The notes under the pieces: generated by a model | What the model saw: the letters and a program-made list of their open reading frames with translations, nothing else | The model's database searches: none | What the model was told of the DNA's origin: nothing | Shown: one piece after another, positions 27,032 to 61,555 of the stretch | Layout: every line of letters begins with the position of its first letter | Numbering within the stretch: the first letter of the stretch is position 1 | Program-made: the position numbers and the translations under genes | NCBI GenBank assembly: GCA_016235675.1 | Contig: JACRJN010000131.1 | Coordinates: 1,779-65,778, forward strand | DNA: 64,000 bases | DNA from: Candidatus Schekmanbacteria bacterium | Lineage (GTDB): Bacteria > SZUA-182 | Direction: 5' to 3'

Positions 27032-27085
27032 CAGGAATGTTTGGTGGTATCCTGCCTAACCCCGAATTTATGGCCACTATCGTGC

Positions 27086-31488: not shown

Positions 31489-31700
31489 AACCACGGAAGC
31501 CACGGAAGCCACGGAAAATCAAACTATTCTCCCCCTCTTTGGCAAAGAGGGGTCGGGGGAGATTTTAAAATTGCTTTCAACCATCAAGTATTTTTAATTA
31601 CTTATGGGAAAATGACAATTTGAAAATCCCCCTTTATCCCCCTTTGCTAAAGGGGGAATTATTATTGATACTTTTCCGTGCCTTCCGTGCCTTCCGTGGT
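31489..31700. repeat. R-F composite: CACGGAAG nonamer-triplet arms enclosing an R-I element
   Basis: CCACGGAAGCCACGGAAGCCACGGAA ... CCCTCTTTGGCAAAGAGGG ... CCCCCTTTGCTAAAGGGGG ... TTCCGTGCCTTCCGTGCCTTCCGTGG. Confidence 0.9.
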
Positions 31701-31951
31701 TAACTCTTGTTAGATTTCCTCTCGATATAACCCGCCAAAGACCCCATATCGGCAAAGACTTCCGGGCCGACATCTTCATCCGCCACCCTGATCCCGAATT
31801 CGACCTCCAAGCCGCCGATCAAATCGATCATCCCGATGGAATCGATCCCGATCTCTTTGAGCGCTTGAGCCTCCGATATATCAGAGACTTCCTGATTGGC
31901 GATTCCGGCCACTAATTTTTTCAACCTGATATTTATTTCATTGGTACTCAT
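31700..31951 (-). CDS. Acyl carrier protein
   Basis: 83 aa. GIDSIGMIDLI phosphopantetheine-attachment serine motif. Overlaps the upstream GT gene. Confidence 0.85.
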   Translation of the reverse strand: MSTNEINIRLKKLVAGIANQEVSDISEAQALKEIGIDSIGMIDLIGGLEVEFGIRVADEDVGPEVFADMGSLAGYIERKSNKS

Positions 31952-34467: not shown

Positions 34468-34496
34468 TATAATTTGTCCCTTCTTGTAAATAAATT

Positions 34497-34594
34497 GGTA
34501 GCGTTTTCAACAGAAGACCAGTAGCGTCATTGCGAGCGGAGCGAAGCAATCTCCATGCGTGCGTAGAGATTGCTTCGCTTAAGCTCGCAATGAC
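34497..34594. repeat. R-C long form, right outer arm missing
   Basis: GGTAGCGTTTTCAACAGAAGACCAGTAGCGTCATTGCGAG...CTCGCAATGAC. Followed by the CCTCAAGCCTCAAGCCT fragment at 34619..34636. Confidence 0.85.
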
Positions 34595-34639
34595 ATTTTT
34601 CAGCCGAAAGAAAATTATCCCTCAAGCCTCAAGCCTAGT

Positions 34640-35851
34640 TTATGCCGTAATCAATTCGGCTAATTGAGCCACATTCTTTCTAATATCAAAAGATTCGCAA
34701 ACCCTTTGCCGCCCGGCTTTTCCTAACCTTTGGCGCAAATCCGGGTCGTGATATAGTTTTTTAATCGCCTCCTTCAAGGCCAAAACATCTGCGGGAGGAA
34801 CGATTAGCCCGGTTTCCATATTATGCACCAATTCGGGAATAGCGGAAATATCGGTTGAGATTACCGGCACTTCCAATGCCAGCGCTTCGATAAATACGTT
34901 GGGAAGGCCATCCTGCCGGTTACCGTTGAGTGTAACGCAAGGCAGGACAAAGACATCAGCCGACTTCATCTTTTCAATTACCTGAGGATGAGGCAAATGA
35001 TTGCTGATTTTCACCCGGTCACCTAATTGATATTTTCGGTGCAAGGCGATTATTTCCTCTTTGGCCGGGCCGTTTCCGCCGATAATCTCCGCACTAAATT
35101 CCATCCCTTCTTTTTTCAGCAGATGAAGCGCTTCGATTAAATATTTGAACCCCTTCTTTTCCACCATCCGCCCAACCGCCAGGATATTGAATTTCCCGTT
35201 GCTTCTACTCCCAAGAGGCTGATAATGATTGGGGTTCAATCCATGATAATTTACCTTAATTTTATCGGCAAAGCCGTTTTCACATAAAGTAATTAAATAT
35301 TTCTGATTAAATTGTGTACAGGTAACCATACATTTGGCTTTTTTAATCTTCTGCCGCAACCCATATGTATCTACAAAAATATCCCAGGCATGACCGGTAA
35401 AGGAAAATCCCAACCCTAAAAGCCGGGCGATTATCATGGCGCTTGCCGTAGAAGTCGTCGCCCAATGGGCATGGATATAGCGAATATTTTGTTCCTCGAT
35501 AAGTTTAGCGTAATAAACAGATTTTGGGAAGATAGCCAACGCCCTAAGGATAAAAGCTAACTCGTTAGAATTGGTAAAAAGTTCTTTTAAGACGGCTAGA
35601 TATTGCTTGGGTTTTTTCGCAAGATAATAAATATGCGCCCATAAAATCTTTAAGGATAACAGGTAGGGGCTGTAATAAACCGGCCTTTTCAGTTGATTTA
35701 ATAACGGATAATTTTTCTCCAAATCAGCCAGTTTTTTCCCCAAGGCAAATATATGTAAATCAATTCCCTGATTGGCTAATTCCAGCATCTCCCGCAGAAT
35801 AAATTCCGATCCCAGAGATGTGTTGATATAAGCTATCTTTTGTTTTGCCAT
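34640..35851 (-). CDS. Glycosyltransferase family 4
   Basis: 403 aa. VFVLPC....NRQDGLPNVFIEALALEVPVISTDISA motif. GAAGGAAG RBS directly next to the repeat. Confidence 0.88.
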   Translation of the reverse strand: MAKQKIAYINTSLGSEFILREMLELANQGIDLHIFALGKKLADLEKNYPLLNQLKRPVYYSPYLLSLKILWAHIYYLAKKPKQYLAVLKELFTNSNELAFILRALAIFPKSVYYAKLIEEQNIRYIHAHWATTSTASAMIIARLLGLGFSFTGHAWDIFVDTYGLRQKIKKAKCMVTCTQFNQKYLITLCENGFADKIKVNYHGLNPNHYQPLGSRSNGKFNILAVGRMVEKKGFKYLIEALHLLKKEGMEFSAEIIGGNGPAKEEIIALHRKYQLGDRVKISNHLPHPQVIEKMKSADVFVLPCVTLNGNRQDGLPNVFIEALALEVPVISTDISAIPELVHNMETGLIVPPADVLALKEAIKKLYHDPDLRQRLGKAGRQRVCESFDIRKNVAQLAELITA

Positions 35852-37412
35852 CTAACTTCCTTCTTTGGTAGCACAGGCTGGAAGCACATGACACAGGCTG
35901 GAAGCCTGTGTTACCGGATGCAGGGCTGAAGCCCTGCGCTACACTTTTTTGCCTCCCGGTTAAAAGCCTCCCTTTAGCTTTAACAGTAATTCCGGCCATG
36001 ATCCAAAAATAAGCCGTTAATTCATTGGAAAAAAAGCGCGCTCCCGATAAATCCAATAAAAACAGGGCGATGACACAACCCAGTAGCCCGCCGGCCAGCG
36101 CCTTAATGTAGGGATCGTCCGTCTGGCGCATTACCTGCCGGGCACTAAAAAAAACAGCCGCCAAAATCCATAAATACAAAATTAACCCGACGATTCCTTC
36201 CTCGACTGCAATCCAAATAAACGAACTATGAGCCGCTTTGGGAAACGGAAGCACCCCACATCTGACCACCACTTCCTGGAATGTTTCAAAACCCGTACCC
36301 AAGATGGGGGCTTCGGCCATCATCCGCGGCAATCCTTTCCACTGGCGTAGCCTCAATTCTGTGGAATTATCGTATTGCTGATTTTCATATTTTCCCTGCA
36401 CCCCTTCTTCCAGAAAGGTATCGTCTACCCGTTCTTCTACCGCCGGCGGCGGATGCACCAAGATCACAACTAAAGCCAACAACATAAATAAAAGCAGGCG
36501 CTTATCTTTAACCAGTCCCAGGAACAAAAGACTGGCCAAACAGGCCAGCCAGGAACCGCGGGATAAGGTGGTAAACAAGGCCAGAAAACATAAACCGGTA
36601 CCCGCTAAAAGCAGGTAATGCCGTTTGGAGGGCAGTTTCAGATATAAAGAGCAAATAAATAGCGGGGTATACATAGCCAGAAAGCCGCCATATAAATTAG
36701 GCTGATCCCCGATTACCCCGCCTCCGTTTCTGTTCCGCTCGATATAATCCGCTATTCGAAAAAAATCTTTTAACGAAAGTATTACGATAATTCCGATCGT
36801 TACTAAAAGAAAAATCAACAAACGGCGGCTATAATGCAAATCGTAAGATTTTAAGGTGATGAAATATAAAGAAACATAAATAAGCCAATTTTTAGCGACA
36901 CTTAAGCGTTCAACATCCGAACAATACGCGGAAGGCATCCTGAAAATGGATAATAAAGTAAAAAATACAAGCAGATAAACAGGTATTTTTAACGGATCGC
37001 ATCTCGAATTTTCTTGCGGCTGCTTTTGGGAAAACACGCCAAGAAATAAAATGGCCACAATAATAGTTTGGGCGTTTATTCCGGTTATGCCGAAAAAATC
37101 AGGGGGAAAGAGGTCTAAAATCGGCATAAAAAAGATAAAAAAACAAACCGCTAAATCGATTCTTACAAAGGCCAAATAAGTCCAAAAAATACCCAGGGAA
37201 AACCCTAAGAAAATCTTTACCGGATAATAAGGCAAAAATATCGCGCAAATTACCGCCGCCACAAGAACCGATAAACTTGTTTTTTCAAACCGATCAACCG
37301 AAGAGACATCAGATTTGCCGGATGTTTCGGTTGGATTTAAATAATTTAATTGATACACAGGTGAAGTGTCCACAACTTTCCTCAGTGCTATGAAATACGA
37401 CAAAACTCCCAT
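35760..37412 (-). CDS. O-antigen ligase/polymerase-like (Wzy/WaaL family) polytopic membrane protein
   Basis: About 10 predicted TM helices with a large loop (SRGSWLA...). Both ends are uncertain: start alternatives at 37496 (GTG) and 37412 (ATG). The 3' end reads through the repeat and 92 nt into the next gene. Confidence 0.65.
   Translation of the reverse strand: MGVLSYFIALRKVVDTSPVYQLNYLNPTETSGKSDVSSVDRFEKTSLSVLVAAVICAIFLPYYPVKIFLGFSLGIFWTYLAFVRIDLAVCFFIFFMPILDLFPPDFFGITGINAQTIIVAILFLGVFSQKQPQENSRCDPLKIPVYLLVFFTLLSIFRMPSAYCSDVERLSVAKNWLIYVSLYFITLKSYDLHYSRRLLIFLLVTIGIIVILSLKDFFRIADYIERNRNGGGVIGDQPNLYGGFLAMYTPLFICSLYLKLPSKRHYLLLAGTGLCFLALFTTLSRGSWLACLASLLFLGLVKDKRLLLFMLLALVVILVHPPPAVEERVDDTFLEEGVQGKYENQQYDNSTELRLRQWKGLPRMMAEAPILGTGFETFQEVVVRCGVLPFPKAAHSSFIWIAVEEGIVGLILYLWILAAVFFSARQVMRQTDDPYIKALAGGLLGCVIALFLLDLSGARFFSNELTAYFWIMAGITVKAKGRLLTGRQKSVAQGFSPASGNTGFQPVSCASSLCYQRRKLDGKTKDSLYQHISGIGIYSAGDAGISQSGN
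35867..35942. repeat. Triple-hairpin element (copy 2 of the 29871 type)
   Basis: GGTAGCACAGGCTGGAAGCACATG A CACAGGCTGGAAGCCTGTGTTACC GGAT GCAGGGCTGAAGCCCTGCGCTAC. Lies inside the 3' end of ORF 35760..37496. Confidence 0.9.
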
Positions 37413-38842
37413 AACCGGTACAAGCGCGCCTTTTCCTGGGCGGCAAAAAAACCGCTCAGCCAAAGTAATACGGGAAACAAAAGAATTAACATGCACTTAT
37501 AAGCGATAGCCACGCTTATTGCTTCAATATTAATCAGTACCCCCGCCAAATATAAAGCTAAGCTAATCGCTATTAATTTGATGATACGACCAAATTCATA
37601 TCTGACAGGATAAAGCTTCATCGAAAGAACGACTATCATAATAAATTGAAAAATATAGGCCAGCAACGTCGCATAAGCCGCCCCCATCATCCCAAAAGAT
37701 GGGATCCAAAGAAAATTCAATCCGACATTCAACAGCGCAGCAATTCCTACAGCCGTGCTGAAATATGAAGTTTTACTCTTCAAATATACACCGACCGCCA
37801 CTACATTGAACAGCCCGTAAAATAACTGGGATAGGGCAATGATCGGAATCACCCGGTAAGCCTCTAAAAATTTAGGCGTGGTGGCTAAAATAATAATTTC
37901 CCTGGCCAATATCGATAAGGACAGGCAGACAAAGGACATTATCGCAAAAAAATAAGTGCTGGTTTTGGAATATAACTCGTTGGCATTTGGCGATTTTTCG
38001 TTGGAAAACACAAATTGCGGCCAGGCCAGTTGAAAAGCCCAGGCCAGAAACCACAGAATTTCCCCGAATCTATAGCCTAATGAATAGATACCCACTTGAT
38101 CCAGCGTACTATACATTTTTAACATGTATCTGTCCGACAGGGTTAAGATTATCCCGCCGATGCCGGAGAAGATTAAGGGAACGCCGAACCGCAGCAGACT
38201 TTTTGCTTCGGTTAAAGAAAACCGAAAAGGCACATCCCTTAAAATCCAGGGGATAAGAATGAGGCAAACTAACAAACCGGCCAGGCATTGACTGATTAAA
38301 ATCCCCCAGAACCCTTTTTTAAATGCCACTACTAAAAAAATAGTCAATAACAAGGTAAAACCGGTATCGGATAAAGTCAGTACGGCATATTTCTTCGATT
38401 CGCCTTGCGCCCGCAGGCAGGAAAAAGGGATTTTGGCCAATTGGGAAAAAACACCGGTTAAAGACACGATGATCACGGCATTGGCATAAACCGGGCTTCC
38501 CAGCAACAATCTGGAAATCCCGGCTGAATTAACAATAATAATGCCCATCACCGGCAGAGAAATCAGCAGCATTATAAATCCGGAGGTGCTTAAAACCAGG
38601 TTTTTCCCCTCCGGTGTCTCGGCCTTAAAATAATTTTTAAATATGGCGCTGCTCATCCCCAGGTTTAAAAATATAAACAAAAAGGAGCCGAACAGGGAAC
38701 ATAAAGACAAGATTCCATAATCCGCGGGCGTCAGATAACGGGTATAAAGCGGAATCAGCAAAAATCCCACTATTTTCCCGGCGGTATTTCCTAAAACATA
38801 GAAAATACTATCGGAAAATAATTTTTTAATTTTGGAAAACAT
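37388..38842 (-). CDS. Polysaccharide flippase (Wzx, MOP superfamily)
   Basis: 484 aa, about 12-14 TM helices. N-terminal GNTAGKIVGFLLIPLYTRYL motif. Confidence 0.85.
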   Translation of the reverse strand: MFSKIKKLFSDSIFYVLGNTAGKIVGFLLIPLYTRYLTPADYGILSLCSLFGSFLFIFLNLGMSSAIFKNYFKAETPEGKNLVLSTSGFIMLLISLPVMGIIIVNSAGISRLLLGSPVYANAVIIVSLTGVFSQLAKIPFSCLRAQGESKKYAVLTLSDTGFTLLLTIFLVVAFKKGFWGILISQCLAGLLVCLILIPWILRDVPFRFSLTEAKSLLRFGVPLIFSGIGGIILTLSDRYMLKMYSTLDQVGIYSLGYRFGEILWFLAWAFQLAWPQFVFSNEKSPNANELYSKTSTYFFAIMSFVCLSLSILAREIIILATTPKFLEAYRVIPIIALSQLFYGLFNVVAVGVYLKSKTSYFSTAVGIAALLNVGLNFLWIPSFGMMGAAYATLLAYIFQFIMIVVLSMKLYPVRYEFGRIIKLIAISLALYLAGVLINIEAISVAIAYKCMLILLFPVLLWLSGFFAAQEKARLYRLWEFCRIS

Positions 38843-42620: not shown

Positions 42621-42686
42621 GTAGTCCCAGCCCTTTAGGGCTGAATTTCCGGGGCTAAAGCCCCGGCACTACGGCTACGGCTACGG
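42621..42686. repeat. R-B doublet plus tandem CTACGG x3
   Basis: GTAGTCCCAGCCCTTTAGGGCTG...CCGGGGCTAAAGCCCCGGCACTACGGCTACGGCTACGG. Confidence 0.9.
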
Positions 42687-42705
42687 CTGACAATCGCCTG
42701 TACCG

Positions 42706-51297: not shown

Positions 51298-51372
51298 ACC
51301 AACCAACATATTCCAATTGACAATGCCGACGGTAAAGATTATATTTTATAATATTTGGCTAATGTTGTTTTT

Positions 51373-51686
51373 TTACCACGAAGGCCACAAAGCACACGAA
51401 GAAAAAATTTCGAGAGTGTTCACCTAAAGATAGATATTTATATATTTAAAAACGTAGTCCCGTGGCTTTAGCCGCGTATTTTCAGCCCCTTAGGGCTGCA
51501 AAAAAAGGTGTGTTCGTATGGAACGCGCCGAAAGTATTGAGAGTCATAATTGCAGGGCTAACGCCCTGAAGTTCAGCCCTGAAGGGCTGGGACTACGATA
51601 TTACTGGGACTACGATATTATATTGATGTTTTGGCCAATCCCCAGGCCGAAAAATTTCTTCGTGCTCTTCGTGTGCTTCGTGGTTG
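51373..51686. repeat. R-F composite: CACGAAG arms enclosing four R-B-type hairpins
   Basis: CCACGAAGGCCACAAAGCACACGAAGAA ... GTAGTCCCGTGGCTTTAGCCGCG, CAGCCCCTTAGGGCTG, GCAGGGCTAACGCCCTGA, CAGCCCTGAAGGGCTGGGACTAC ... TTCTTCGTGCTCTTCGTGTGCTTCGTGG. Confidence 0.88.
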
Positions 51687-51707
51687 GTAATTTCATCTGG
51701 GAGCGAC

Positions 51708-52928
51708 ATGCCTGTTTTCGTTTACAAAGCCTGTGACAGTACCGGGAAAATTATTACCGGCACCATGGAAGTAAAGGATCGGACGGCGGTGACAGCCGGT
51801 CTGCAAGCCTCTAATTACTACCCGTTGCAGATCGATGAACAGCAAAAAGATCAGGGCATATCCGCAACCGCCGGTTTAACTTTAAGCTTTCAGCGGGTAA
51901 AGAAAAGAGATATATTAACCTTTACCAACCAATTGGGAATCCTCATGGAAGCCGGATTGCCGCTGGATCGCAGCTTAGCCATCCTCAAAGACCTGACGGA
52001 TAATAAAAAATTCGCCAGGATTATCGATAACATCCTGCGCAGCATCGAAGGCGGCAGTTCGCTGGCCGACGCCTTGGCGCGTCATCCCCGCGTTTTTTCC
52101 CGCCTCTATGTCAACATGATTAAGGCGGGCGAAACCGGCGGCGTGCTGGAATTGGTCATCAAGCGCCTGAGCGAATTTCTCGGCAACTCCCAGGCATTGC
52201 AGGATGATATTATATCGGCTATGATCTACCCGACTCTTTTGACCCTGGTGGCGGCAAGCGCGGTGGCCACTTTGTTGCTCTTCGTCGTCCCCAAATTTGC
52301 CGCCATGTTCAGCGATATGGGGCAGGCTTTGCCCCTGTCCACCCAAATTTTACTGGGCGTTACCGATATTTTGATTAATTATTGGTGGGCGATTTTAGGC
52401 AGCCTGGTGTTGCTGATTATCGCTTCCCGTTATTTTATCGGAACCGAGTCCGGTAAATATACCTGGGACGGCTGGAAGCTCAAGATTCCTTTATTGGGCG
52501 CACTGATTCAGCAAATCGAAGCCGCCCGTTTTACCCGCACCTTAGGCACATTGATTAAAAGCGGAGTCCCGATCCTGCAAGGGCTGAATATAGTAAAGGA
52601 CATCATCAGCAACAGCGTCATCTCCGCCGCGATGTATAAAGTCAGCAACGGCTTGAAGGAAGGCGGCGGAATAACCACCCCTTTGATGGAAAGCCACGTC
52701 TTCCCCCCCCTGGTAACGCACATGACCGCCATCGGAGAAGAAACCGGGCAATTAGACACTATGCTGATCAAAGTGGCCGATAGTTACGACGAAGAAATAC
52801 GCAACAGTATCAAAAGATTAATATCCTTTATCGAACCGGCGATGATTTTATTGATGGGCATCGTGGTCGGATTTATCGTGGTAGCCATGTTGATGGCGAT
52901 TTTCAGCGTCAATCAGATGCCGTTTTAA
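51708..52928 (+). CDS. Type II secretion / type IV pilus platform protein (GspF/PilC family)
   Basis: MPVFVYKA.D..G N-terminus. Two T2SSF repeats (L...L..GLPL..(S/A)L). Three TM helices. No cognate ATPase or pilin in the window. Confidence 0.85.
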   Translation: MPVFVYKACDSTGKIITGTMEVKDRTAVTAGLQASNYYPLQIDEQQKDQGISATAGLTLSFQRVKKRDILTFTNQLGILMEAGLPLDRSLAILKDLTDNKKFARIIDNILRSIEGGSSLADALARHPRVFSRLYVNMIKAGETGGVLELVIKRLSEFLGNSQALQDDIISAMIYPTLLTLVAASAVATLLLFVVPKFAAMFSDMGQALPLSTQILLGVTDILINYWWAILGSLVLLIIASRYFIGTESGKYTWDGWKLKIPLLGALIQQIEAARFTRTLGTLIKSGVPILQGLNIVKDIISNSVISAAMYKVSNGLKEGGGITTPLMESHVFPPLVTHMTAIGEETGQLDTMLIKVADSYDEEIRNSIKRLISFIEPAMILLMGIVVGFIVVAMLMAIFSVNQMPF

Positions 52929-52933
52929 AAAAT

Positions 52934-52994
52934 CGTTGACGGTTGACGATTGTCGGTTATTATTTTTTTAACTGACAACTGACAACCGTCAACA
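52934..52994. repeat. GTTGACG/GTTGTCA heptamer palindrome with T-rich loop (possible bidirectional terminator)
   Basis: CGTTGACGGTTGACGATTGTCGGTT ATTATTTTTTTA ACTGACAACTGACAACCGTCAACAG. Confidence 0.85.
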
Positions 52995-53005
52995 GAAATA
53001 TTACC

Positions 53006-53530
53006 ATGAACCTCTTATTACATATTTGCTGCGCTCCCTGCACGGTCTATCCGCATCAGCAATTAACCCAGGCCGGGGTTCAGATTAAGGGATTCTTCTT
53101 CAATCCCAATATTCATCCCCTTCAGGAATTTAAAAAACGGCTGCTGGCGGTGCAGCAGTTGCAAACAATCACCGGGCTACCGGTAATCTATCGGGATGAA
53201 TATGGTTTGGAAGAATTTGTGCGCCAGGTGGTTTTTCGGGAGCAACAGCGCTGTAGCTTTTGCTACTTTTGGCGCCTGGAGATGGTGGCTAAAACCGCCA
53301 AGGAACAAAATTGCGCGGCATTTTCCAGCACCCTGCTTTACAGCAAGTATCAAAAGCATGAATTGATCAAAGAAATCGCTGAAGATATAGCTCAAAAGGA
53401 AAAGATTCCCTTCTATTATGAAGATTTCCGCCGCGGCTTTTCGGAAGGCATAAATCTATCCAGGCAAATGCAGCTTTACCGCCAGCCCTATTGCGGCTGC
53501 ATTTACAGCGAGGCGGAAAGGTATAAATAG
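53006..53530 (+). CDS. queH: Epoxyqueuosine reductase QueH (DUF208)
   Basis: 174 aa. LLLHICCAPC, FFNPNIHP and a C-terminal YRQPYCGC motif. Confidence 0.85.
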   Translation: MNLLLHICCAPCTVYPHQQLTQAGVQIKGFFFNPNIHPLQEFKKRLLAVQQLQTITGLPVIYRDEYGLEEFVRQVVFREQQRCSFCYFWRLEMVAKTAKEQNCAAFSSTLLYSKYQKHELIKEIAEDIAQKEKIPFYYEDFRRGFSEGINLSRQMQLYRQPYCGCIYSEAERYK

Positions 53531-53550
53531 GTTTCGGTATCCGATATTAT

Positions 53551-53973
53551 CACCACGAAGAACACGAAGGGCACGAAGAATGGTATGAATAGGATAAAGG
53601 TAAAGAGTGAAGGTAAGGGACTTAGAAGATATTGACATACCCCCCACCCTAACCCTCCCCCGCAAGGGGCATAGGCGCTAACTTAGGCATTTAAAGTTCC
53701 CTCTCCCCCTGGGAGAGGGTTAGGGTGAGGGTACCATAATTTAATTTTTTAAGCTTTTGTACCATCATCCCGACCTTCTCCCAAGGGGAGAAGGAGCCTA
53801 AGTTAGCGCTTATGCCCGCAAGGGGGGAGGGAATTTATCCCCCTCCCCCCTTGATGGGGGAGGGTCGGGGTGGGGGTGATTATCGCGATCCTGAAACGGT
53901 ATGTTTGAAAATTTCAAGTCCCTAAACACCCTTTTCCCTTTTTCCCTTCGTGGCCTTCGTGCTCTTCGTGGTG
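53551..53973. repeat. R-F composite: CACGAAG arms enclosing about 360 nt of nested G/C-run palindromes
   Basis: CACCACGAAGAACACGAAGGGCACGAAGAA ... CCCCCACCCTAACCCTCCCCCGCAAGGGGC, CTCTCCCCCTGGGAGAGGGTTAGGGTGAGGG, CCTTCTCCCAAGGGGAGAAGG, GGGGGAGGGTCGGGGTGGGGG ... CCCTTCGTGGCCTTCGTGCTCTTCGTGGTG. Confidence 0.88.
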
Positions 53974-53997
53974 AATCAAAAAATTGGAATCAGCAAC

Positions 53998-55320
53998 ATG
54001 ACCACTAAAATAATCGATGCGGTCTGCGCCGCCGGGGTAGTCGGAGCGGGCGGAGCCGGATTTCCCGCTCATATCAAGCTGCAAGCCAAAGTCGATCTGA
54101 TCATCGCCAACGGCTGCGAATGCGAACCGCTGCTTTGTACCGATCAATATCTTATGGAAAATCAGGCCGATGCGGTGATAAAGGGATTATCCCTTGCCCT
54201 TCAGACCACCGGAGCGGATAAAGGTATCATCGCCCTGAAGGGAAAATACTCCGCTTCATACCAAGCGTTACAAAAAGCGGCTAAAGGTATCAAGGCAATA
54301 GAATTCAGCTTATTGCCCAATTATTATCCCATGGGGGATGAACAAATCCTGACCTGGCAGGTTTCGGGACGCCTGGTGCCCCTGGGCGGGATTCCCACCC
54401 AGGCCGGGGTTTTAGTGCAAAACGTGACCACACTGTCCCAAATAGCCGCAGCTATTGACGGGCTGCCGGTCACTCATCGAATGGTTGCCGTTTTGGGAGA
54501 AGTCGCCGAACCTAAGGTATTGAAAGTCCCTGTCGGTACCCCGGTTTCCCAGGTCATCGCATGGACGGGCGGCTTTCTGCGTGAGGACGTCGCGATCATT
54601 ACCGGCGGCCCGATGATGGGGCAATTGACGGTCGATCCCGACACCCCGATAACCAAAACCACCAATGCCTTGCTGGTATTGCCTAAAGAACACCATTTAA
54701 TCCTCAACAAAAGAAAAAACCTGCTGCATATGCAGCGCCACAGCCAATCCTACTGCCACGCCTGCTCAGGCTGTCAGATATTGTGCCCGCGCCAGGGTTT
54801 GGGACATCCCATCAGGCCGCAGCGTTCCATGCGTTCTGCCGGTTACCCCTTTACCACCCTCCCCTCCCCTTTACACAATATAACAGCATGCAGCCAATGC
54901 GGAGTTTGCGGATTTTATGCTTGCCCTATGGGATTAAATCCGGCTATAATACATAAAGACTTGCAAAAATATCCAAAAGATCATAAAATAATGATTATTC
55001 CCACATCACGCTCACAAAATCGATCGCTCCCCTTGGGAATTCCCACTGTCCGCCTCATTCAACGTCTGGGGCTGGGACGCTATAACCAACATCCGGCGCT
55101 GGATAACAACCGTTATCAGCCACAGTGGGTCAGATTGCCTTTAAAACAGCATGTAGGCGATGCTTCAATTCCGGTGGTGTCGGAAGGCGCCAAAGTTAAA
55201 GCCGGGGATTTACTGGCAAAGATTCCCGCCGGTAAATTAGGGGCCAGACTACATGCTTCGATAAATGGCAAGGTTAAGAAGATTACGGAGCGGGAAATAA
55301 TTATAACAATGGACAATTGA
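53998..55320 (+). CDS. RnfC/PduS-like electron-transfer protein (NADH-binding-like domain, SLBB, two 4Fe-4S motifs, C-terminal barrel-sandwich hybrid)
   Basis: GVVGAGGAGFPAHIKL. CHACSGCQILCP and CSQCGVCGFYACP. C-terminal VKAGDLLAKIP..KLGARLHASINGKV. ATG at 53998 chosen because upstream codons are repeat-derived. Confidence 0.7.
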   Translation: MTTKIIDAVCAAGVVGAGGAGFPAHIKLQAKVDLIIANGCECEPLLCTDQYLMENQADAVIKGLSLALQTTGADKGIIALKGKYSASYQALQKAAKGIKAIEFSLLPNYYPMGDEQILTWQVSGRLVPLGGIPTQAGVLVQNVTTLSQIAAAIDGLPVTHRMVAVLGEVAEPKVLKVPVGTPVSQVIAWTGGFLREDVAIITGGPMMGQLTVDPDTPITKTTNALLVLPKEHHLILNKRKNLLHMQRHSQSYCHACSGCQILCPRQGLGHPIRPQRSMRSAGYPFTTLPSPLHNITACSQCGVCGFYACPMGLNPAIIHKDLQKYPKDHKIMIIPTSRSQNRSLPLGIPTVRLIQRLGLGRYNQHPALDNNRYQPQWVRLPLKQHVGDASIPVVSEGAKVKAGDLLAKIPAGKLGARLHASINGKVKKITEREIIITMDN

Positions 55321-55382
55321 CAATGGACAATTGACAGTTTTTCGTTATCCATTATCCACTATCCACTATCCACTATCCATTG
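55308..55382. repeat. GGACAATTGACAAT x2 and CCACTAT heptamer x3 tracts
   Basis: CAATGGACAATTGACAATGGACAATTGACAG overlaps the stop of 53998..55320. Followed by CCATTATCCACTATCCACTATCCACTATCCATTG. Confidence 0.85.
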
Positions 55383-55399
55383 AATTAACAACAATATTT

Positions 55400-57136
55400 A
55401 TGTCCATAAACAAACCTAAAAATTGGGATTTTTACCCCCCGAATCCCGAATTGCAAAAGAAACTCCAATCGGAATTAGGGATAAAATCCCGATTGGCCGA
55501 TCTGATGATCAACCGCGGCATCGAAACCGTCGCCGACGCCGGGATTTTTTTATGGGGGACTTTAGCGGAATTACACAGCCCATTTATCATGAAAGGGATG
55601 ACCACCGCCGCCGGAATCATTCTTAACGCCGTCCGGCAAAAAGATAAAATCTGTGTTTACGGGGATTACGACGTCGATGGATTAACCGGTGTGGCTTTGC
55701 TGTTCAAAACCCTGAGTTCGCTCCAGGCCGACGTGATCTTTTACATCCCCCACCGGCTGGAAGAAGGTTACAGCCTGAATTGTCAGGCGCTGGACGAGAT
55801 CAAAAACGCCTCCGTCAATTTAATCGTAACCGTGGACTGCGGCATCACCTCCTGCAACGAAGTCAATTACGCCAATAAATTGGGGATGCAGGTAATTATC
55901 AGCGACCATCATCAATTGGGAAATAATCTGCCTGCCGCCGCGGCCATTCTCAATCCCTTACAACCCGGATGTCCCTATCCTTTTAAAAAACTGTCCGGCG
56001 TAGGTATTGCCTTGAAATTAGCGCAGGCCATATTGGCGCAATCCGGTTTAATCCGCGAGGCGGCTGATCTTTTAAATAATGATTTGGACCTGGTAGCCCT
56101 GGGAACAATAGCCGATATGGTACCTTTAATGGGGGAAAACAGGATTTTAGTAAAATATGGTCTTAAACAATTGACAAATTCCTCCAAATCAGGTATAAAA
56201 GCATTAAAGCAGGTTACAGGTCTGGCTATTGACCAGGAAGTTAGCGTAGTAGACGTAGCATATAAGCTAGCCCCCCGGTTAAATGCCACCGGCAGAATGA
56301 GCGACCCTCAGCAGGGGTTGGAACTGCTGGTATCCAATAACGACACTGAAAGCGCTAATCTGGCTAAGCAAATAGAAGAAAACAATGTTCAGCGCAAAGC
56401 TATCGAAGGGATAATCCTGGAACAAGCCAGGACGCAATTGCAGCAAGCTATCGAGAACAACGCTCCGCCAAAAGCGATTATTTTAGCGGCCGAGGGCTGG
56501 CATATCGGCGTAATCGGAATCGTCGCCTCCCGCATAGTGGAAGAGTATTTCCGCCCGACGATCATTATCGGGCTTACATCGGGTGTCGGCAAAGGTTCAG
56601 GCCGAAGTATCCGTAACTTGCACCTGCAGCAAGTTTTATTGAAATGTCAGGATTTACTGCTGGAGTTCGGCGGCCATGAAATGGCGGCGGGCTTGAGTAT
56701 TCTGGAAGAAAATATACCCCGGTTCAAAGAGCGCATCAATCAACTGGTGGAAGATTCTTTACAGGAAAACGACTTTATACCCAGCTATAATCTGGACGGC
56801 GTGGTGGAATTAAAAGAGCTGACCTTGTCGTTTTGGCAGGAAATACAATTAATGGAGCCGTTCGGCATAGGCAATCCGGCGCCGTTATATTGTGCACGCC
56901 ATTTAGAAATAATGCCGCCGCTGCGCTTAGTGGGCAATAACCATTTAAAATTGAAGCTCAGGCAAAACGACCTGACTATGGAAGCCATCGGTTTTAATAT
57001 GGGAGATTGGCTCTCATTTTTAAATACTCCGGGCAATAAATCGATAGATGTGATTTTCCGCCCCCAGTTGAATGTCTGGCAAGGCAAAGAGCAATTGCAA
57101 TTGTCCCTGCAGGACATAGTGCAGACCAGGGATTAA
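55400..57136 (+). CDS. recJ: Single-stranded-DNA-specific exonuclease RecJ
   Basis: VYGDYDVDGLTG, TVDCGI and ISDHH (DHH) motifs, and GGHEMAAG (DHHA1). ATG at 55400. Confidence 0.93.
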   Translation: MSINKPKNWDFYPPNPELQKKLQSELGIKSRLADLMINRGIETVADAGIFLWGTLAELHSPFIMKGMTTAAGIILNAVRQKDKICVYGDYDVDGLTGVALLFKTLSSLQADVIFYIPHRLEEGYSLNCQALDEIKNASVNLIVTVDCGITSCNEVNYANKLGMQVIISDHHQLGNNLPAAAAILNPLQPGCPYPFKKLSGVGIALKLAQAILAQSGLIREAADLLNNDLDLVALGTIADMVPLMGENRILVKYGLKQLTNSSKSGIKALKQVTGLAIDQEVSVVDVAYKLAPRLNATGRMSDPQQGLELLVSNNDTESANLAKQIEENNVQRKAIEGIILEQARTQLQQAIENNAPPKAIILAAEGWHIGVIGIVASRIVEEYFRPTIIIGLTSGVGKGSGRSIRNLHLQQVLLKCQDLLLEFGGHEMAAGLSILEENIPRFKERINQLVEDSLQENDFIPSYNLDGVVELKELTLSFWQEIQLMEPFGIGNPAPLYCARHLEIMPPLRLVGNNHLKLKLRQNDLTMEAIGFNMGDWLSFLNTPGNKSIDVIFRPQLNVWQGKEQLQLSLQDIVQTRD

Positions 57137-57138
57137 GG

Positions 57139-57265
57139 TTCACTTAAGACGTAGCGCAGGGCTTTAGCCCTGCTTATGGCGGCTTTGGTAGGCACTCCGG
57201 AGCAGACCTAAAGGTCTGCTCTACGTTAAGTGAACAGTCTGCGCTACGTTAAGTGAACAGTATTG
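57139..57265. mobile_element. R-A MITE-like element at the recJ/cytochrome junction (left TIR lacks its first 8 nt; right end partly duplicated)
   Basis: TTCACTTAAGACGTAGCGCAGGGCTTTAGCCCTGC...GCAGACCTAAAGGTCTGCTCTACGTTAAGTGAACAGT CTGCGCTACGTTAAGTGAACAGTATTG. Flanked by GGATTAAGG at 57130..57138 and 57266..57274. Confidence 0.75.
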
Positions 57266-57288
57266 GGATTAAGGAGGGGTTTGGGGGA

Positions 57289-58773
57289 GTGTTAAAAAAG
57301 CAATTATTTTTTAGATTGTCGCTGGTTGTCGTTTTGGGATTTTATTTTATATGGCCGAATATCTTTTCCTGGGCGCAGGAAGAACCTGCTGCGATAAAAA
57401 CAGACAAACCGGAATTTGTGGAACCGGGTATGAATCCCAATGAGAACATACCCACTATCGATCAATTTGTTGTCCCGTCGGATCTGGCGCCTGCCGTAAA
57501 GGATATGGCGCCGCAAAAAAAAGAATCCGAAGCGGGTAAAAAGATAGAATCCGAAGCGCCGACATTACCCTCCGGCCTTCTCCCGGACAAAACACCGGCA
57601 GCCGCTCCTGTGGCACCGGAGATGCAGCCTACTTTAACGGACTGGAATAAAGAAAATTTACTGAAATCATATAGCGATTTTATGAAAATGATGTCTCCGA
57701 AACGGGATGGGATCAAATTGGAAGCGCAAACAACGGAAGCACAAGATAATCCGATTTGGAAATTTCATAGCTGGCTGCAAGACCAACTGGCAATTATGGA
57801 ACAAACCGGCGGAGAAACCGCCGGCGGCAAAGGCGGCCTGGAAGAACTGTGTTTTGTTTGCCATAACGGTAAATTGGTAGTCAACCCTAACTTCTCCGGC
57901 GATTATACCAGTATCAAGGATGTTTTTCAACTCACCAGCCGCCATCCGGTAAGAGCTGCCGATAAATCCAATTTCTACGATCCGCTGAATCCGGATGACC
58001 CGACCAAATCAGACCCGACCTGGGAACGCAAACTACAATGTACTACCTGCCATAATCCGGCGGTAGTTACCGGAAAAACCAAGGACGGCGGTTATCCCTT
58101 AACCCTGCCTACCGATCCCGAAGTCACCTGGACGCAAAAATTAATCGACGGCTGGCCTACTTTGGATAATCCACCCTGGCCTCATGACACCCCGCCCCGT
58201 CCGATAGTCTACGGGCGCCCCTATGCGGATGATCCCAATCCCGATGTGCCGGGGGACGAAAAATTGGGCCCCGATGCCACGGAATTACCTAATTTTACCT
58301 CCTATTGTCAAACCTGCCACCGGCAAATTTCCGGACGTTACGGCGTGAGCAATAACTATTCCCGCTTAAAATACGATCCGATCCGCTATATCAAGGGAGA
58401 TGGCGGCGGCAATGTTTCAACCCATGGTTTAGCGCGCGGCAGGGAAAGCAATACCCCACATTTAAAATTAAGAGAACCATTCTACTCTTTAAGATGCGAC
58501 GCAGAGGGAAATGTAGTTAACAATCTTTATCTGGCCTGCGTCGATTGCCATGAACCTCATGGCTCTTCCAATGCTTTTTTATTAAGAACGAAGGTAAACG
58601 GTGTAGCGGGTGTAAAAGCCGGGTATGACGGTAAATTTTTTACTTTATGTTCTAAATGTCACATTGTCGCCAATCCCTGGCCGGGCGGGTATCCGCACGG
58701 GTCTCCGGGGGATATGGCGGAAAGATCATGTATCCAGTGCCATAACCATTCATCAGGGGGGGGGCGTTTCTAA
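57289..58773 (+). CDS. Secreted or membrane-anchored hexahaem c-type cytochrome
   Basis: GTG start after AAGGAGGGG. Hydrophobic N-terminus. Six CxxCH motifs: CFVCH, CTTCH, CQTCH, CVDCH(EPHGS), CSKCH, CIQCH. About 190 aa Pro/Glu/Ala/Lys-rich linker before the haem domain. Confidence 0.85.
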   Translation: MLKKQLFFRLSLVVVLGFYFIWPNIFSWAQEEPAAIKTDKPEFVEPGMNPNENIPTIDQFVVPSDLAPAVKDMAPQKKESEAGKKIESEAPTLPSGLLPDKTPAAAPVAPEMQPTLTDWNKENLLKSYSDFMKMMSPKRDGIKLEAQTTEAQDNPIWKFHSWLQDQLAIMEQTGGETAGGKGGLEELCFVCHNGKLVVNPNFSGDYTSIKDVFQLTSRHPVRAADKSNFYDPLNPDDPTKSDPTWERKLQCTTCHNPAVVTGKTKDGGYPLTLPTDPEVTWTQKLIDGWPTLDNPPWPHDTPPRPIVYGRPYADDPNPDVPGDEKLGPDATELPNFTSYCQTCHRQISGRYGVSNNYSRLKYDPIRYIKGDGGGNVSTHGLARGRESNTPHLKLREPFYSLRCDAEGNVVNNLYLACVDCHEPHGSSNAFLLRTKVNGVAGVKAGYDGKFFTLCSKCHIVANPWPGGYPHGSPGDMAERSCIQCHNHSSGGGRF

Positions 58774-59774
58774 TGACGAATGAACTTGTGTTCGGCAGTG
58801 GCAGTATCATAGGGAAGAGTAAACCCATCAGGCATCTGTTTGGTCTCATCCCTTATTTGGCTGCCCAGGAAAATCCTGTTTTGATTCAGGGCGAAAGCGG
58901 CACCGGCAAAGAGCTAGTGGCTACCGCCATACATTCTTACAGTCAGCGTTCTCTGTCGCCGCTGATTAAAGTCAACTGTTCCGCCATAGATGAAACCTAT
59001 TTAGATGTCGAGTTATTCGGCGGGGTAAAAGAAACAGGAGAGGGGAAAAAAGAGGTAGCGAAGGGGTTATTCGAAATCGCCGACGGCGGCACAATTCTCC
59101 TGGATTGTATCGATAAATTACCCCCGGCGGGACAGGAAAAGCTCTCCCAGGTAATGAGCGAACATAAAATTCACCCCTTAGGTGTTCCGGAGATTAAGAA
59201 TATTAATGTACGGGTCCTGGCCACCACAGAATCTTCTTTAGCGGAGGCTGTCGGCCAGGGGGCATTTAATGAAGGTTTATACAACCAACTGCAAAATAAT
59301 GTCATCAGTATGCCGGCACTGCGCAAATTCCGGGAAGATATACCCTTGCTTGTCAAGCACTTTGCCACTAAATACAGCAAAAAACATAATAAATCAGTAA
59401 AAGGCATTTCGGCTGAAGCCTTGTCTATCTTGATGGAATACGACTGGCCGGGGAATATCAAAGAATTAGAGGAATGTATCGAGCAGGCTGTGATCATTGA
59501 GGATTTGGAAATCATCCAGGCGCACAGTCTGCCCTATGATTTGTTCCATACGGCGGAAAGCGCCCGTCATCGCCTGGCGGAGGAATATAATCTGCGCCGC
59601 CGCTTGAAGGCATTCGAGCGTCAATTGATCTTGCGCGCTTTAAACGAAACCAAATGGAAGAAGAAAGAAGCCGCTCAGTTAATGGGCATCGATCAGCGCA
59701 ATTTGAGCTATTTCTTAAGAAAGCATCACATTACCGATCCGGCCACCAGGGAAAAAGAGCGCGGGTATCTATAG
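58773..59774 (+). CDS. Sigma54-activator-like AAA+ / Fis-HTH protein with degenerate catalytic and sigma54-contact motifs, no N-terminal sensor domain
   Basis: GESGTGKE Walker A is intact. Walker B is GGTILLDCI (Cys in place of Glu). ELFGGVKETGEGKK replaces ELFGHEKGAFTGA. FNEGLYNQL replaces FRxDLxxRL. WPGNIKELEE and the C-terminal HTH are present. Confidence 0.8.
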   Translation: MTNELVFGSGSIIGKSKPIRHLFGLIPYLAAQENPVLIQGESGTGKELVATAIHSYSQRSLSPLIKVNCSAIDETYLDVELFGGVKETGEGKKEVAKGLFEIADGGTILLDCIDKLPPAGQEKLSQVMSEHKIHPLGVPEIKNINVRVLATTESSLAEAVGQGAFNEGLYNQLQNNVISMPALRKFREDIPLLVKHFATKYSKKHNKSVKGISAEALSILMEYDWPGNIKELEECIEQAVIIEDLEIIQAHSLPYDLFHTAESARHRLAEEYNLRRRLKAFERQLILRALNETKWKKKEAAQLMGIDQRNLSYFLRKHHITDPATREKERGYL

Positions 59775-59829
59775 CAGGACAGGCGTCCCGCCGGAAATTA
59801 TAAAATATTGTAGGGGCGGGGGTTTCCCC

Positions 59830-59966
59830 CAATGCTGTTGACTTAAGACGTAGCGCAGGGCTTTAGCCCTGCTTAAGACGCGGCATTTGACCCCTGTGGC
59901 TGTAGCAGACCTAAAGGTCTGCGCTACATAAACATCAAAACAAAATTCCTTAAGTCAACAGCATTG
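59830..59966. mobile_element. 137-nt R-A MITE-like element (TIR CAATGCTGTTGACTTAAGACGTAGCGCAG / ...CTTAAGTCAACAGCATTG) inserted in the loop of a GTAG hairpin
   Basis: 11-bp direct duplication GGGGTTTCCCC at 59819..59829 and 59967..59977. The host hairpin GTAGGGGCGGGGG TTT CCCCGCCC spans 59810..59981. Confidence 0.8.
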
Positions 59967-59996
59967 GGGGTTTCCCCGCCCTTTAATTAACTTAAG

Positions 59997-60057
59997 CCGT
60001 AGCCGTAGTGCCAGGGCTTTAGCCCTGGAAATTCAGCCCTAAAGGGCTTTAGACTAC
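59997..60057. repeat. R-B doublet with tandem CCGTAG x2
   Basis: CCGTAGCCGTAGTGCCAGGGCTTTAGCCCTGG...CAGCCCTAAAGGGCTTTAGACTAC. Confidence 0.9.
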
Positions 60058-60069
60058 GAAATTTAAGAG

Positions 60070-60410
60070 CTTATCCGTAAATAACCGTTACCTTTGGTTT
60101 CCCCCTTTAGCAAAGGGGGATTAAGGGGGATTTGCAAATTGTAATTTCCATAAAGAATTTGGCAGCGTTCTCAATCAGAGACCCAAAGCGTCATTGCGAG
60201 GCAGCCTTATCGCCGAAGCAATCTCATCCACACGCATGGAGATTGCTTCGCTTCGCTCGCAATGACACTTCGGAGTCTCCCTATTTCTACGCTACCAAGA
60301 ATTTAATCTTTTAACAATATGTCGTGTTCGAATAATTCTTAAGGTTAGATTCAATTTGAAAATCTCCCCAACCCCTCTTTGCCAAAGAGGGAAAAGTTAT
60401 TTACGGATAT
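60070..60410. repeat. R-I element (CTTATCCGTAAATAAC arms, CCCCCTTTAGCAAAGGGGG / CCCTCTTTGCCAAAGAGGG hairpins) interrupted by an R-C long-form copy at 60159..60298
   Basis: An uninterrupted R-I relative lies at about 31540..31660. The R-C copy runs TTGGCAGCGTTCTCAAT...CTACGCTACCAA. Confidence 0.8.
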
Positions 60411-60521
60411 ATTCTAAGTCTTTCTATTTCTACGCGACAATTTTTAAATAAATATTCTCTGTGTCTCAGTGGCTCTGTGTGAAAAATTTCTCCTGAATTT
60501 TAATTTAGCACCTACCCCATT

Positions 60522-61490
60522 ATGAAAATAATCTTTTGTGGCACGCCGGAATTTGCCCTCCCCAGCTTAAATACCCTACTGACGTCCAAACATCAGGTTT
60601 TGGCGGTGATTACCCCACCCGATCGCCCCGCAGGCCGGGGTAAAAAGCTCAAACCCTCTGCAATTAAGGAAGCCGCCTCAACTCATAATTTACCCATCTT
60701 GCAGCCGGGAAAAATCGGATCGGCGGATTCGCTGGAAAGCATGCGGCAATTGAATCCCGACGCCTTGGCAGTTGTCGCCTTCGGACAACTTCTCCCCCCC
60801 CCGGTACTGAATTTACCCCGCTACGGATGCATCAATGTCCATGCCTCCCTGCTTCCCAAATACCGGGGAGCGGCTCCCATCAATTGGGCGATCATCCGGG
60901 GGGAAACCCAAACCGGGGTCTGCACCATGCGGCTGGATAAAGGGATGGACACCGGCGATGTTATCTTATGCAAGGCTGTCGATATTAGGTCGGAGGAAAC
61001 CGCCGGAACATTACACGACAAGCTGGCCCCGCTGGGCGCGCAATTATTAGCGGAAACATTGGATCAGATCGAAGCGAATACCGCGCTTTATCATCCTCAA
61101 GACCATAACTCGGCCACCTATGCGCCGCTCTTGGATAAATCGATTACCATCATCGACTGGAAACAAAGCGCCGAACAAATCGACTGCCTGGTGCGCGGGT
61201 TAAATCCCTATCCCGGAGCAAAAACATTTTTGGACGATCTGCCGCTGAAAATTCTTACGGTGGAAATCAGCAAGCTAGCTAGCCCGGCCCTACCGGGACA
61301 AATAATTCAGCAAAATCGACGGCAGGGAATTTTAGTCGCGACAGGCAGCGCTCCCATTTGGCTGAAAACAATTCAGCCGGCCAACCGCCAGCCTATGACC
61401 AGTGGCGATTTTCTTTCCGGATTGCGTGAGTCTTTAATAAATAAGGAATTCCGTAGTCCCAGCCCTTTAGGGCTGAATCTCCAGGGCTAA
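60522..61490 (+). CDS. fmt: Methionyl-tRNA formyltransferase
   Basis: 322 aa. MKIIFCGTPEFA, INVHASLLPKYRGAAPI (SLLP) motif. The last ~12 codons and the stop lie inside an R-B doublet. Confidence 0.93.
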   Translation: MKIIFCGTPEFALPSLNTLLTSKHQVLAVITPPDRPAGRGKKLKPSAIKEAASTHNLPILQPGKIGSADSLESMRQLNPDALAVVAFGQLLPPPVLNLPRYGCINVHASLLPKYRGAAPINWAIIRGETQTGVCTMRLDKGMDTGDVILCKAVDIRSEETAGTLHDKLAPLGAQLLAETLDQIEANTALYHPQDHNSATYAPLLDKSITIIDWKQSAEQIDCLVRGLNPYPGAKTFLDDLPLKILTVEISKLASPALPGQIIQQNRRQGILVATGSAPIWLKTIQPANRQPMTSGDFLSGLRESLINKEFRSPSPLGLNLQG

Positions 61491-61504
61491 AGCCCTGGCA
61501 CTAC
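61453..61504. repeat. R-B doublet overlapping the fmt 3' end
   Basis: GTAGTCCCAGCCCTTTAGGGCTG AATCT CCAGGGCTAAAGCCCTGGCACTAC. The fmt stop TAA is in the second loop. Confidence 0.9.
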
Positions 61505-61555
61505 GACTGACAATGGACAACGAATTCATTATCCATTCAATAATGGAGAGCCCTC

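Follow-up and report, generated by a model that had tools for sequence, protein, structure and literature searches.

The subject of this report is a 747-bp tract (positions 59775-60521) within a 64,000-nucleotide stretch of DNA, referred to below as the window, which comes from a metagenome-assembled genome (MAG) of Candidatus Schekmanbacteria. The tract separates two genes of the + strand: the gene of an enhancer-binding protein (EBP; 58773-59774, stop at 59774), a sigma-54 activator with Sigma54_activat, AAA lid and HTH_8 domains, and fmt (60522-61490, start at 60522), located directly 3' of the tract. A preliminary description of the window had seen no gene-like sequence in this gap, and the only open reading frame (ORF) of at least 60 residues found there (60132-60314) is built wholly of repeat sequence; the tract contains no credible gene. 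Two other identities have been considered and rejected: a decayed gene, because no more than about 230 bp is left outside the repeats, scattered over pieces of at most 111 bp, and a CRISPR-like array, because the spacing is irregular.

Self-comparison of the window revealed that 69% of the bases of the tract have matches elsewhere in it, as against 30% of the intergenic DNA taken together and 5% of ORF sequence. A detector of units consisting of GTAG followed by a perfect stem of 6-9 bp identified 49 such units in the window, compared with 0-5 in shuffled sequence serving as the control; nearly all are intergenic and most form inverted pairs. The tract is composed successively of a GTAG-prefixed hairpin split by the element R-A, the doublet R-B, the element R-I interrupted by the element R-C, and a short array of 8-mers. 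All of these had been named in the preliminary description and all proved to be real and placed within about 1 nt; a sixth piece, a solo arm of R-C at 60412-60440, was absent from its list. The earlier count of at least four repeat families is borne out as well, since the families are independent of one another, with parts that recur separately, in both orientations and in other combinations in the window. R-A, R-B, R-C and R-I are palindromic and are given no strand. The tract has thus probably grown by accretion in the spacer behind the EBP gene, from at least five non-autonomous palindromic repeats of independent families, and this spacer coincides with a break in gene order relative to the nearest relatives. 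The nest is made of known kinds of small, transposase-less palindromic repeats, familiar in bacteria as junk or regulatory DNA, and not of a new type of element.

The nested pair nearest to the EBP gene has been recognized from the sequence and by in silico excision. The left half of the host hairpin (GTAGGGGCG followed by GGGGTTTCCCC; 59810-59829, + strand) is separated from the right half (59967-59989, + strand) by R-A, a 137-bp element (59830-59966) defined by its ends, its flanking duplication and its family copies; the extent of the split hairpin given earlier (59810-59981) is correct. The 11-nt sequence GGGGTTTCCCC stands on both sides of R-A, at 59819-59829 (+ strand) and 59967-59977, the right copy being followed by GCCC and a T-rich tail, TTTAATTA. 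These flanks are direct and not inverted repeats, as shown by the TTT loop, whose polarity does not change between the two copies. Removal of R-A together with one 11-nt copy gives the perfect hairpin GTAGGGGCGGGGGTTTCCCCGCCC followed by TTTAATT, with a predicted folding energy of -21.4 kcal/mol, 35 nt past the EBP stop. By its fold, its position behind the stop codon and its T-rich tail this hairpin is terminator-like. It is single-copy in the window, and a terminator hairpin directly after EBP is also present in both relatives that conserve EBP.

R-A is bounded by terminal inverted repeats, CAATGCTGTTGACTTAAGAC (59830-59849 and 59947-59966), which enclose a heterodimer of GTAG repetitive extragenic palindromes (REPs) at 59850-59872 and 59905-59927. 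The two REPs, of which the first is GTAGCGCAGGGCTTTAGCCCTGC, are inverted with their tags outside, are separated by a spacer of about 32 nt, and have unlike stems, CAGGGC-TTTA-GCCCTG and CAGACC-TAAA-GGTCTG. Other copies of the family lie at 16.0, 21.6, 21.7 and 57.1 kb of the window. Flanking duplications were identified at four copies: 11 of 11 nt at 59.8 kb (GGGGTTTCCCC), 10 of 10 nt at 21.6 kb (GCTTTAGCCC), 9-10 nt with one mismatch at 16.0 kb (ATCTAATCA(T) / ATTTAATCA(T)) and 9-10 nt at 57.1 kb (GGATTAAGG). At 21582-21822 the family is nested in itself: one R-A occupies the loop of the left REP of another, and its excision gives the exact REP consensus.

The copy at 57.1 kb (57139-57264) is situated between the stop codon of the RecJ gene and the ribosome-binding site of a cytochrome gene. 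The left copy of GGATTAAGG holds the RecJ stop and the right copy holds part of the ribosome-binding site, so that both signals survive through the duplication. The spacer between these genes measures 116 nt in the window, where it is filled by R-A, and 12 nt in the relative L242 (L242 positions 4540-4580); with the element present in one and absent from the other, the L242 junction is, as judged from sequence, the orthologous empty site of this insertion. As a separate matter of annotation, the true start of the cytochrome gene is probably the GTG near 57289 and not position 57253.

The ends of R-A, (C)CAATRCTGTTSACTTAAGA, carry a CA tip and the block ACTTAAGA at positions 12-19. The same tip and the same block at the same positions are found in the ends of IS231F, CATGCCCATCAACTTAAGRA (in full form CATGCCCATCAACTTAAG(G/A)A), read from plasmid pBtoxis; this insertion sequence (IS) was located in the second 50 kb of the plasmid, the first 50 kb being free of IS231, and is flanked by duplications of 11 and 12 bp. 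The published pattern of IS231-subgroup ends is 'CAT-------AA--TAA---', with direct repeats of 10-12 bp, and that of the IS4 subgroup is '-AATR--------WTW----', with direct repeats of 10-13 bp (PMC2266710 Table 1); the R-A ends also fit the latter. Set beside the range of 10-12 bp, the four R-A duplications measure 11, 10, 9-10 (one mismatch) and 9-10 nt. IS231A produces an 11-bp duplication in the target GGGNNNNNCCC (PMC2577343 Table 1), and GGGGTTTCCCC at 59.8 kb is an exact fit to this target (GGG-N5-CCC); at 21.6 kb the match is GGG-N6-CCC (GGGCTTTAGCCC), at 57.1 kb only half of the target is present, and at 16.0 kb none. The duplications of 9-11 bp and the CA-tipped ends point to the IS4 family, and R-A would accordingly be an IS231/IS4-type miniature inverted-repeat transposable element, or MITE, with a GTAG REP-dimer core, presumably moved in trans. 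Among 1.5 Mb of fetched DNA the transposon ends of R-A occur in the window only, and a literature search with the IS231-end string returned unrelated primers only.

Next to the split hairpin lies R-B (59997-60058, with the closing CTAC at 60057), for which the earlier boundaries of 59997-60057 and the tandem CCGTAG tag (59997-60008) are correct. R-B consists of two REP units, 60005-60028 (GTAGTGCCAGGGCTTTAGCCCTGG) and 60034-60057, with unlike stems, tags outside and a spacer of 5-6 nt. GTAG REPs, their tags-outside dimers and heterodimers, and REP dimers within longer palindromes have been defined previously (PMC3733652), and paired REPs are termed REPINs (Bertels & Rainey 2011, PMC3116915, PMC3337134). 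The term MITE fits R-A, while for R-B the more apt name is GTAG REP dimer, i.e. a REPIN or 'HH' heterodimer. About ten copies of R-B are present in the window, mainly extragenic, in both orientations and with 76-96% identity; no target duplication was found at R-B and no consistent flanking duplication across the copies. By analogy with such elements, for which this is the standard inference, R-B would be mobilised by a REP-associated tyrosine transposase (RAYT). Tandem tags were found at 59997-60008, 42669-42688, 27021-27032, 8297-8315 and 51587-51620, and also at R-C right ends (...TCTACGCTACCAA); they include CCGTAG repeated two to three times, CTACGAAA repeated twice and a 17-mer repeated twice, and may be a trace left where the tag was cleaved and joined repeatedly.

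REP dimers also touch or enter genes. An R-B dimer at 61447-61508 overlaps the 3' end of fmt and encodes the last residues of the protein, about ten in number (...RSPSPLGLNLQG); the five nearest Fmt homologues end 8-11 residues earlier, and the spacer between fmt and ubiX is otherwise only 65 nt. The ORF of leucyl-tRNA synthetase (16335-18923, minus strand) contains another GTAG REP dimer (16891-16946), which is in frame and translated, between the catalytic and the anticodon-binding domains. The genes of V-type ATPase subunits A (2361-4112) and B (5416-6816) are about 1.3 kb apart, and the gap holds two GTAGGGTGGGC-type REP dimers (4113-4771), a small ORF and a gene of a Uma2-family endonuclease (4772-5323).

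The second nested pair is formed by R-I and R-C. R-I had been placed at 60070-60410, with inverted ends that are correctly located: a 22-nt inverted repeat encloses the element, its left arm TATCCGTAAATAACCGTTACCT (60072-60093, + strand) pairing with the right arm at 60388-60409 (+ strand). This outer repeat is private to the EBP-fmt locus, and the family-defining core of R-I is 60099-60394. The core comprises the left arm and the start of the loop (TTCCCCCTTTAGCAAAGGGGGATTAAGGGGGATTTGCAAATTG...; 60099-60159), with 94% identity to 31610-31658, and, beyond R-C, the rest of the loop and the right arm CAATTTGAAAATCTCCCCAACCCCTCTTTGCCAAAGAGGG (60298-60394), with 82.5% identity to 31533-31595. The arms (TTCCCCCTTTAGCAAAGGGGGATTAAGGGGGATTT... 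and its complement) pair, and an uninterrupted copy of R-I stands at 31533-31658. Homology of the private outer repeat (GTAAATAAC...) with an element of L242 has been considered and rejected, as chance suffices for a match of 9-13 nt.

R-C interrupts R-I, as had been proposed, and sits in the loop of the R-I hairpin just past the left arm. It is present in its long form, a 138-bp palindrome (60160-60297; ends TGGCAGCGT...ACGCTACCA) with 87% identity to 8044-8184, and contains the core hairpin GTCATTGCGAG...GAAGCAATCTC / GAGATTGCTTCG...CTCGCAATGAC (60190-60266). The AGAATT-like repeats reported at its borders are a perfect AGAATT on both sides (60154-60159 and 60298-60303); the AT-rich near-duplication reported at the second long copy (8044-8184) is there too, its flanks being imperfect (ATAATATTT / ATAATTTTA). 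In silico excision of R-C and one AGAATT gives a 197-nt R-I hairpin with a predicted energy of -70.6 kcal/mol, colinear with the uninterrupted copy at 31533-31658. Within the window the R-C core occurs alone at five further sites (9.1, 33.2, 34.5, 41.0 and 50.1 kb), a complete pair of outer arms elsewhere only at 8044-8184, and the left outer arm alone joined to the core at 34495-34598. The R-C ends are GTAG-tagged in other copies (TTGGTAGCGT...ACGCTACCAA). Because of these tags, and of a perfect flank at one copy only, two routes are open: R-C possibly moved by a DDE transposase, with a 6-bp duplication, or by a RAYT-type enzyme, with AGAATT as a chance repeat. The R-C outer arms occur in the window only, among the 1.5 Mb of fetched DNA; a collection of viral contigs gave no match to the long-form ends, and a literature search with the core string returned unrelated primers only.

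The tract ends with two smaller pieces. The solo R-C right outer arm, TTCTAAGTCTTTCTATTTCTACGCGAC (60412-60440, + strand), has 81% identity over 27 nt to 60269-60295 and includes TATTTCTACGC, which elsewhere in the window occurs only at R-C right ends. The closing tract, given earlier as 60458-60482, is present but shifted by one position: it is an array of three 8-mers, CTCTGTGT CTCAGTGG CTCTGTGTG, followed by AAAAAT (60457-60481, + strand), 40 nt before the fmt ATG. This array is unique in sequence within the window. It resembles one arm, without its partner, of the threefold 8-9-mer arrays of the CTTCGTG / CCACGGAAG kind; arrays of the types CTTCGTG, CCACGGAAG and CTCTGTG are arranged as inverted pairs over long range, each pair enclosing an entire intergenic region along with the other repeats it contains (11884-12090, 31491-31703, 51368-51687 and 53545-53975). 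At five array loci, fmt included, one arm precedes a start codon of the same orientation by 17-40 nt, and a promoter or leader role of these arrays may be considered. Promoter scans upstream of fmt found no convincing sigma-70-type promoter on the + strand and no sigma-54 site. Elsewhere, AGGCACTTTTCTTGCA (20363-20378) matches the sigma-54 consensus with one mismatch about 105 nt upstream of a fructose-1,6-bisphosphatase gene (20485); the number of sigma-54-like matches across the window equals the chance expectation.

The comparison with related genomes showed no conservation of the tract in the nearest relatives. The nearest other homologues of Fmt and EBP, among 5.8 billion proteins, are only 59-68% identical. 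The gene block T2SSF-QueH-RnfC-like-RecJ-multihaem cytochrome-EBP (window 51684-59774) is kept in L242 and L244, with about 65-68% EBP identity. In all three lineages this six-gene block ends at EBP and the next gene differs each time, being fmt in the window and glycosyltransferases or AhpC in L242 and L244; the tract therefore lies at a synteny breakpoint. The fmt-ubiX pair occurs in other gene contexts in relatives, where the spacers upstream of fmt measure 102-229 bp and are unrelated to the tract. The L242 spacer after EBP is 486 bp long and contains a canonical terminator and two further hairpins, one of them of the R-C-core type (79% identity over 68 nt, E about 1e-12); one more core of the R-C type is present in another spacer of L242. 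In 65 kb of the relatives' DNA (L001-L004, L242, L244) no GTAG hairpins of the window families were found, and the detector gave two matches, both in L244, AT-rich and chance-like. On these sequences the R-C family is the older or shared component, and the expansions of GTAG REPs and R-A appear specific to the lineage of the window.

In the scheme of accretion, the sequence shows that the EBP gene originally ended with a GC-rich, GTAG-prefixed hairpin and a T-tract. The 137-bp R-A entered the top of this hairpin, duplicating the 11 bp GGGGTTTCCCC, and the 138-bp long form of R-C, with AGAATT on both sides, entered the loop of the R-I hairpin; the R-B dimer, the broken R-C arm and the 8-mer array are found beside the nested pairs. 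The preliminary description had regarded the tract as a set of nested insertions recording their own order. The excisions uphold two true nestings, R-A in the hairpin and R-C in R-I; the order can be read within these pairs (the hairpin before R-A, R-I before R-C) and not between neighbours. R-A would have been mobilised in trans by an IS231-like DDE transposase of the IS4 family encoded elsewhere in the genome. Such a transposase would prefer GGG-N5-CCC palindromes, a preference that would make GC hairpins and REP stems (GGGC-TTTA-GCCC) landing pads and lead to stacked nests. R-B, and the REP pair of R-A, would be handled by RAYT tyrosine (HUH) transposases acting on single-stranded DNA, a mechanism expected to leave no duplication. 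Because every element is palindromic, each insertion would keep or lengthen the hairpins; functions in termination and at mRNA ends could thus survive, making the spacer permissive.

Several observations weigh against this account. The sequence derives from a MAG. No transposase or Y1/RAYT domain was found in the 50 ORFs of the window, so that the mobilising enzymes enter the scheme by inference. The searched collections held no relative closer than about 65% in protein identity, and thus none to offer a direct empty site of the EBP-fmt tract. R-I has no recognisable duplication and no defined ends, and the perfect 6-bp flanking repeat is present at one of the two full R-C copies. Within the R-A family, the degenerate outer copy at 21.58 kb has a flanking repeat of 6-7 nt only; the 57.1-kb copy is without the outer 8 nt of its left end and carries a 23-nt tandem duplication at its right end, and is therefore rearranged; and GGG-N5-CCC is exact in one insertion, near (N6) in a second and absent at 16.0 kb. 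Finally, part of the pile-up may result from the joining of EBP to fmt itself.

This last possibility, namely that a rearrangement joined a repeat-bearing post-EBP spacer to a repeat-bearing pre-fmt spacer, perhaps by recombination between repeats, is tentative and on balance rather doubtful. The end of the conserved block at EBP in the window and in two relatives, with a different gene downstream each time, speaks for it, as do the other contexts of fmt-ubiX, the long, hairpin-rich post-EBP spacer of L242 with its R-C-type element, and the broken pieces of the tract (the solo R-C arm and the unpaired 8-mer array). The two nestings with intact duplications are insertions regardless, however, and a recombinant hybrid element marking the join was not found; a junction complements accretion and does not replace it. 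The MAG origin and the repeat-rich nature of the tract, together with an EBP-fmt adjacency not seen in relatives, also raise the question of a repeat-driven assembly artefact. This is very unlikely: the other copies of the repeats reach only 74-96% identity and in most cases stay below 140 bp, so that they lend themselves poorly to mis-joining; the exact duplications and the restored hosts bear the mark of biology; and on either side of the tract the unique sequence runs on into the genes without a break.

A different reading treats the tract as a selected functional module instead of neutral transposon debris: a terminator or insulator separating EBP from fmt, a stabiliser of mRNA 3' ends, a protein-binding cluster resembling the bacterial interspersed mosaic elements (BIMEs) of E. 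coli, or the carrier of the fmt promoter. The predicted folding of the tract is far stronger than that of shuffles (z = -11.5), but high foldability is automatic for palindromic repeats. The host hairpin is terminator-like, its outer stem being kept by the palindromic R-A insertion, arrays similar to the threefold 8-mer stand in front of five start codons, and REPs are reported to have roles in termination and mRNA stability (PMC3733652); against these stand the lack of conservation in relatives and the negative promoter scans. As the sole explanation such a module is unlikely, although a functional role is compatible with accretion. The same strong predicted structure might suggest one large structured non-coding RNA of 747 bp, the scenario that the preliminary description had named as its own refutation and that has not been seen. 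It is highly improbable, given that its components are also found apart from one another elsewhere in the window, in either orientation and variously combined, that target duplications mark insertions, and that the tract is absent from relatives. Rfam searches at gathering and permissive thresholds assigned no family to the tract and returned only sub-threshold hairpin look-alikes; among these the Acido-Lenti-1 RNA model (RF01687) scored 16.6-19.3 bits on REP units at 59846-59873, 16011-16041 and 35919-35954, as against a gathering threshold of 37, which makes it a lead only.

The distribution of the families outside the window has also been analysed. The 22-23-nt REP GTAG-N2-3-CRGGGCTTTAGCCCYG has at least 115 matches in species-representative genomes, with about 9 expected by chance, in about a dozen or more phyla, including Acidobacteriota, Thermodesulfobacteriota, Nitrospinota, WOR-3, Elusimicrobiota, Planctomycetota, Actinomycetota and Bacteroidota. 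Among the matches listed, 41 of 125 REPs have an inverted partner within 130 nt, often as tags-outside dimers, and nine have a GACC...GGTC partner stem as in R-A; sub-threshold matches of the Acido-Lenti-1 model fall on these cross-phylum REPs too. The R-I arm CCCCCTTTAGCAAAGGGGGAT(T/A)AGGGGGATTT was identified in more than 120 environmental metagenome stretches, typically folded into a compact hairpin of about 85 nt; in some of them (e.g. L153, L204, L205, L229 and L231) the loop holds additional hairpins. R-C cores occur at loci from other phyla. Cross-phylum spread is thus observed for three families: the GTAG REP pair, in which the stem asymmetry GGGC/GACC is conserved, the CCCCCTTTAGCAAAGGGGG hairpin of R-I and the GTCATTGCGAG...GAAGCAATCTC core hairpin of R-C. 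That the stacked families are not debris private to one lineage but form a cross-phylum set of near-identical intergenic hairpins, spread horizontally or held constant by a shared recognition code of host or transposase, is a speculative and rather improbable extension. If it were true, nests would assemble themselves through hairpin-loop targeting, an IS231-type transposon would have captured a REPIN to give the R-A composite, and REPs would gain a second, DDE-driven and horizontally transferable route of spread. Motifs of this distribution bear on the question whether the inheritance of REP/RAYT systems is strictly vertical.

Accretion by insertion makes the tract a worked example, in an uncultured candidate phylum, of nest-building by small palindromic repeats. 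What is new here is the interpretation of R-A as a probable IS231-like MITE with a REP-dimer core that seeks palindromes, together with the recognition of R-B as a GTAG REPIN, of the extra R-C fragment, of the synteny breakpoint and of the orthologous empty site for a sister copy of R-A. An IS231-type MITE with a preference for GGG-N5-CCC would mean that terminator and REP hairpins draw further insertions. Such insertions can be accommodated behind a stop codon and ahead of the ribosome-binding site of the following gene, or can extend an essential protein (fmt) by a tail, and leave the genes unbroken. For annotation, the result accounts for the length of an 'empty' spacer and for several small ORFs that are spurious, and flags a synteny breakpoint. 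Two other stretches of the window (34468-35759 and 37497-38825), about 1.3 kb each and thus longer than the EBP-fmt tract, are also without an ORF of at least 90 residues; their in-window repeat coverage is 9% and 0%, respectively.

The tract may be compared with E. coli BIMEs and Neisseria mosaic regions, in which likewise several palindromic repeats share one spacer between co-directional genes (PMC2817692, PMC3733652). Unlike E. coli BIMEs, it has no regular alternation of REPs with fixed linkers, only one dimer of each of two REP types, and families without mutual relation lie one inside the other, with target duplications. R-B and the core of R-A share with GTAG REPs the tag, a GC-rich stem of 6-8 bp and a 4-nt loop, with REPINs the inverted pairs with tags outside and different stems, and with both a multi-copy, mostly extragenic and sometimes intragenic distribution without duplications. 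They differ from the surveyed GTAG REPs in that no RAYT gene lies within the window, the host belongs to a candidate phylum outside those surveys, the tags are often tandem (CCGTAG two to three times), and the same 22-23-nt REP recurs across about a dozen or more phyla.

R-A resembles IS231 and its MIC231 cassettes in the CA tip, in ACTTAAGA at an equal distance from the tip, in the duplications of 9-11 bp and in one insertion exactly in GGGNNNNNCCC; like the MIC231 cassettes, which are moved in trans, it has no transposase gene. In contrast to them, it is no longer than about 110-137 bp and carries, instead of a gene, a REP dimer as its passenger, the outer 11 nt of its ends differ from those of IS231, the host is far from Bacillus, and the transposase is not seen in the window. 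The layout of R-A is that of GTAG-15 of Anabaena variabilis, where a REP dimer is centred in a longer conserved inverted repeat and the outer palindrome is not found without REPs (PMC3733652); R-A differs in its transposon-type ends and 9-11-bp duplications, which would provide a concrete route of mobilisation. REPs are known targets of insertion sequences (Tobes & Pareja 2006, PMC1525189; ISPpu9, PMC8450116). Like these insertion sequences, R-A enters REP and hairpin palindromes, in its case a GC hairpin and the REP loop of another R-A. Unlike them, it is itself tiny, non-autonomous and REP-carrying, and therefore makes new targets for its own family.

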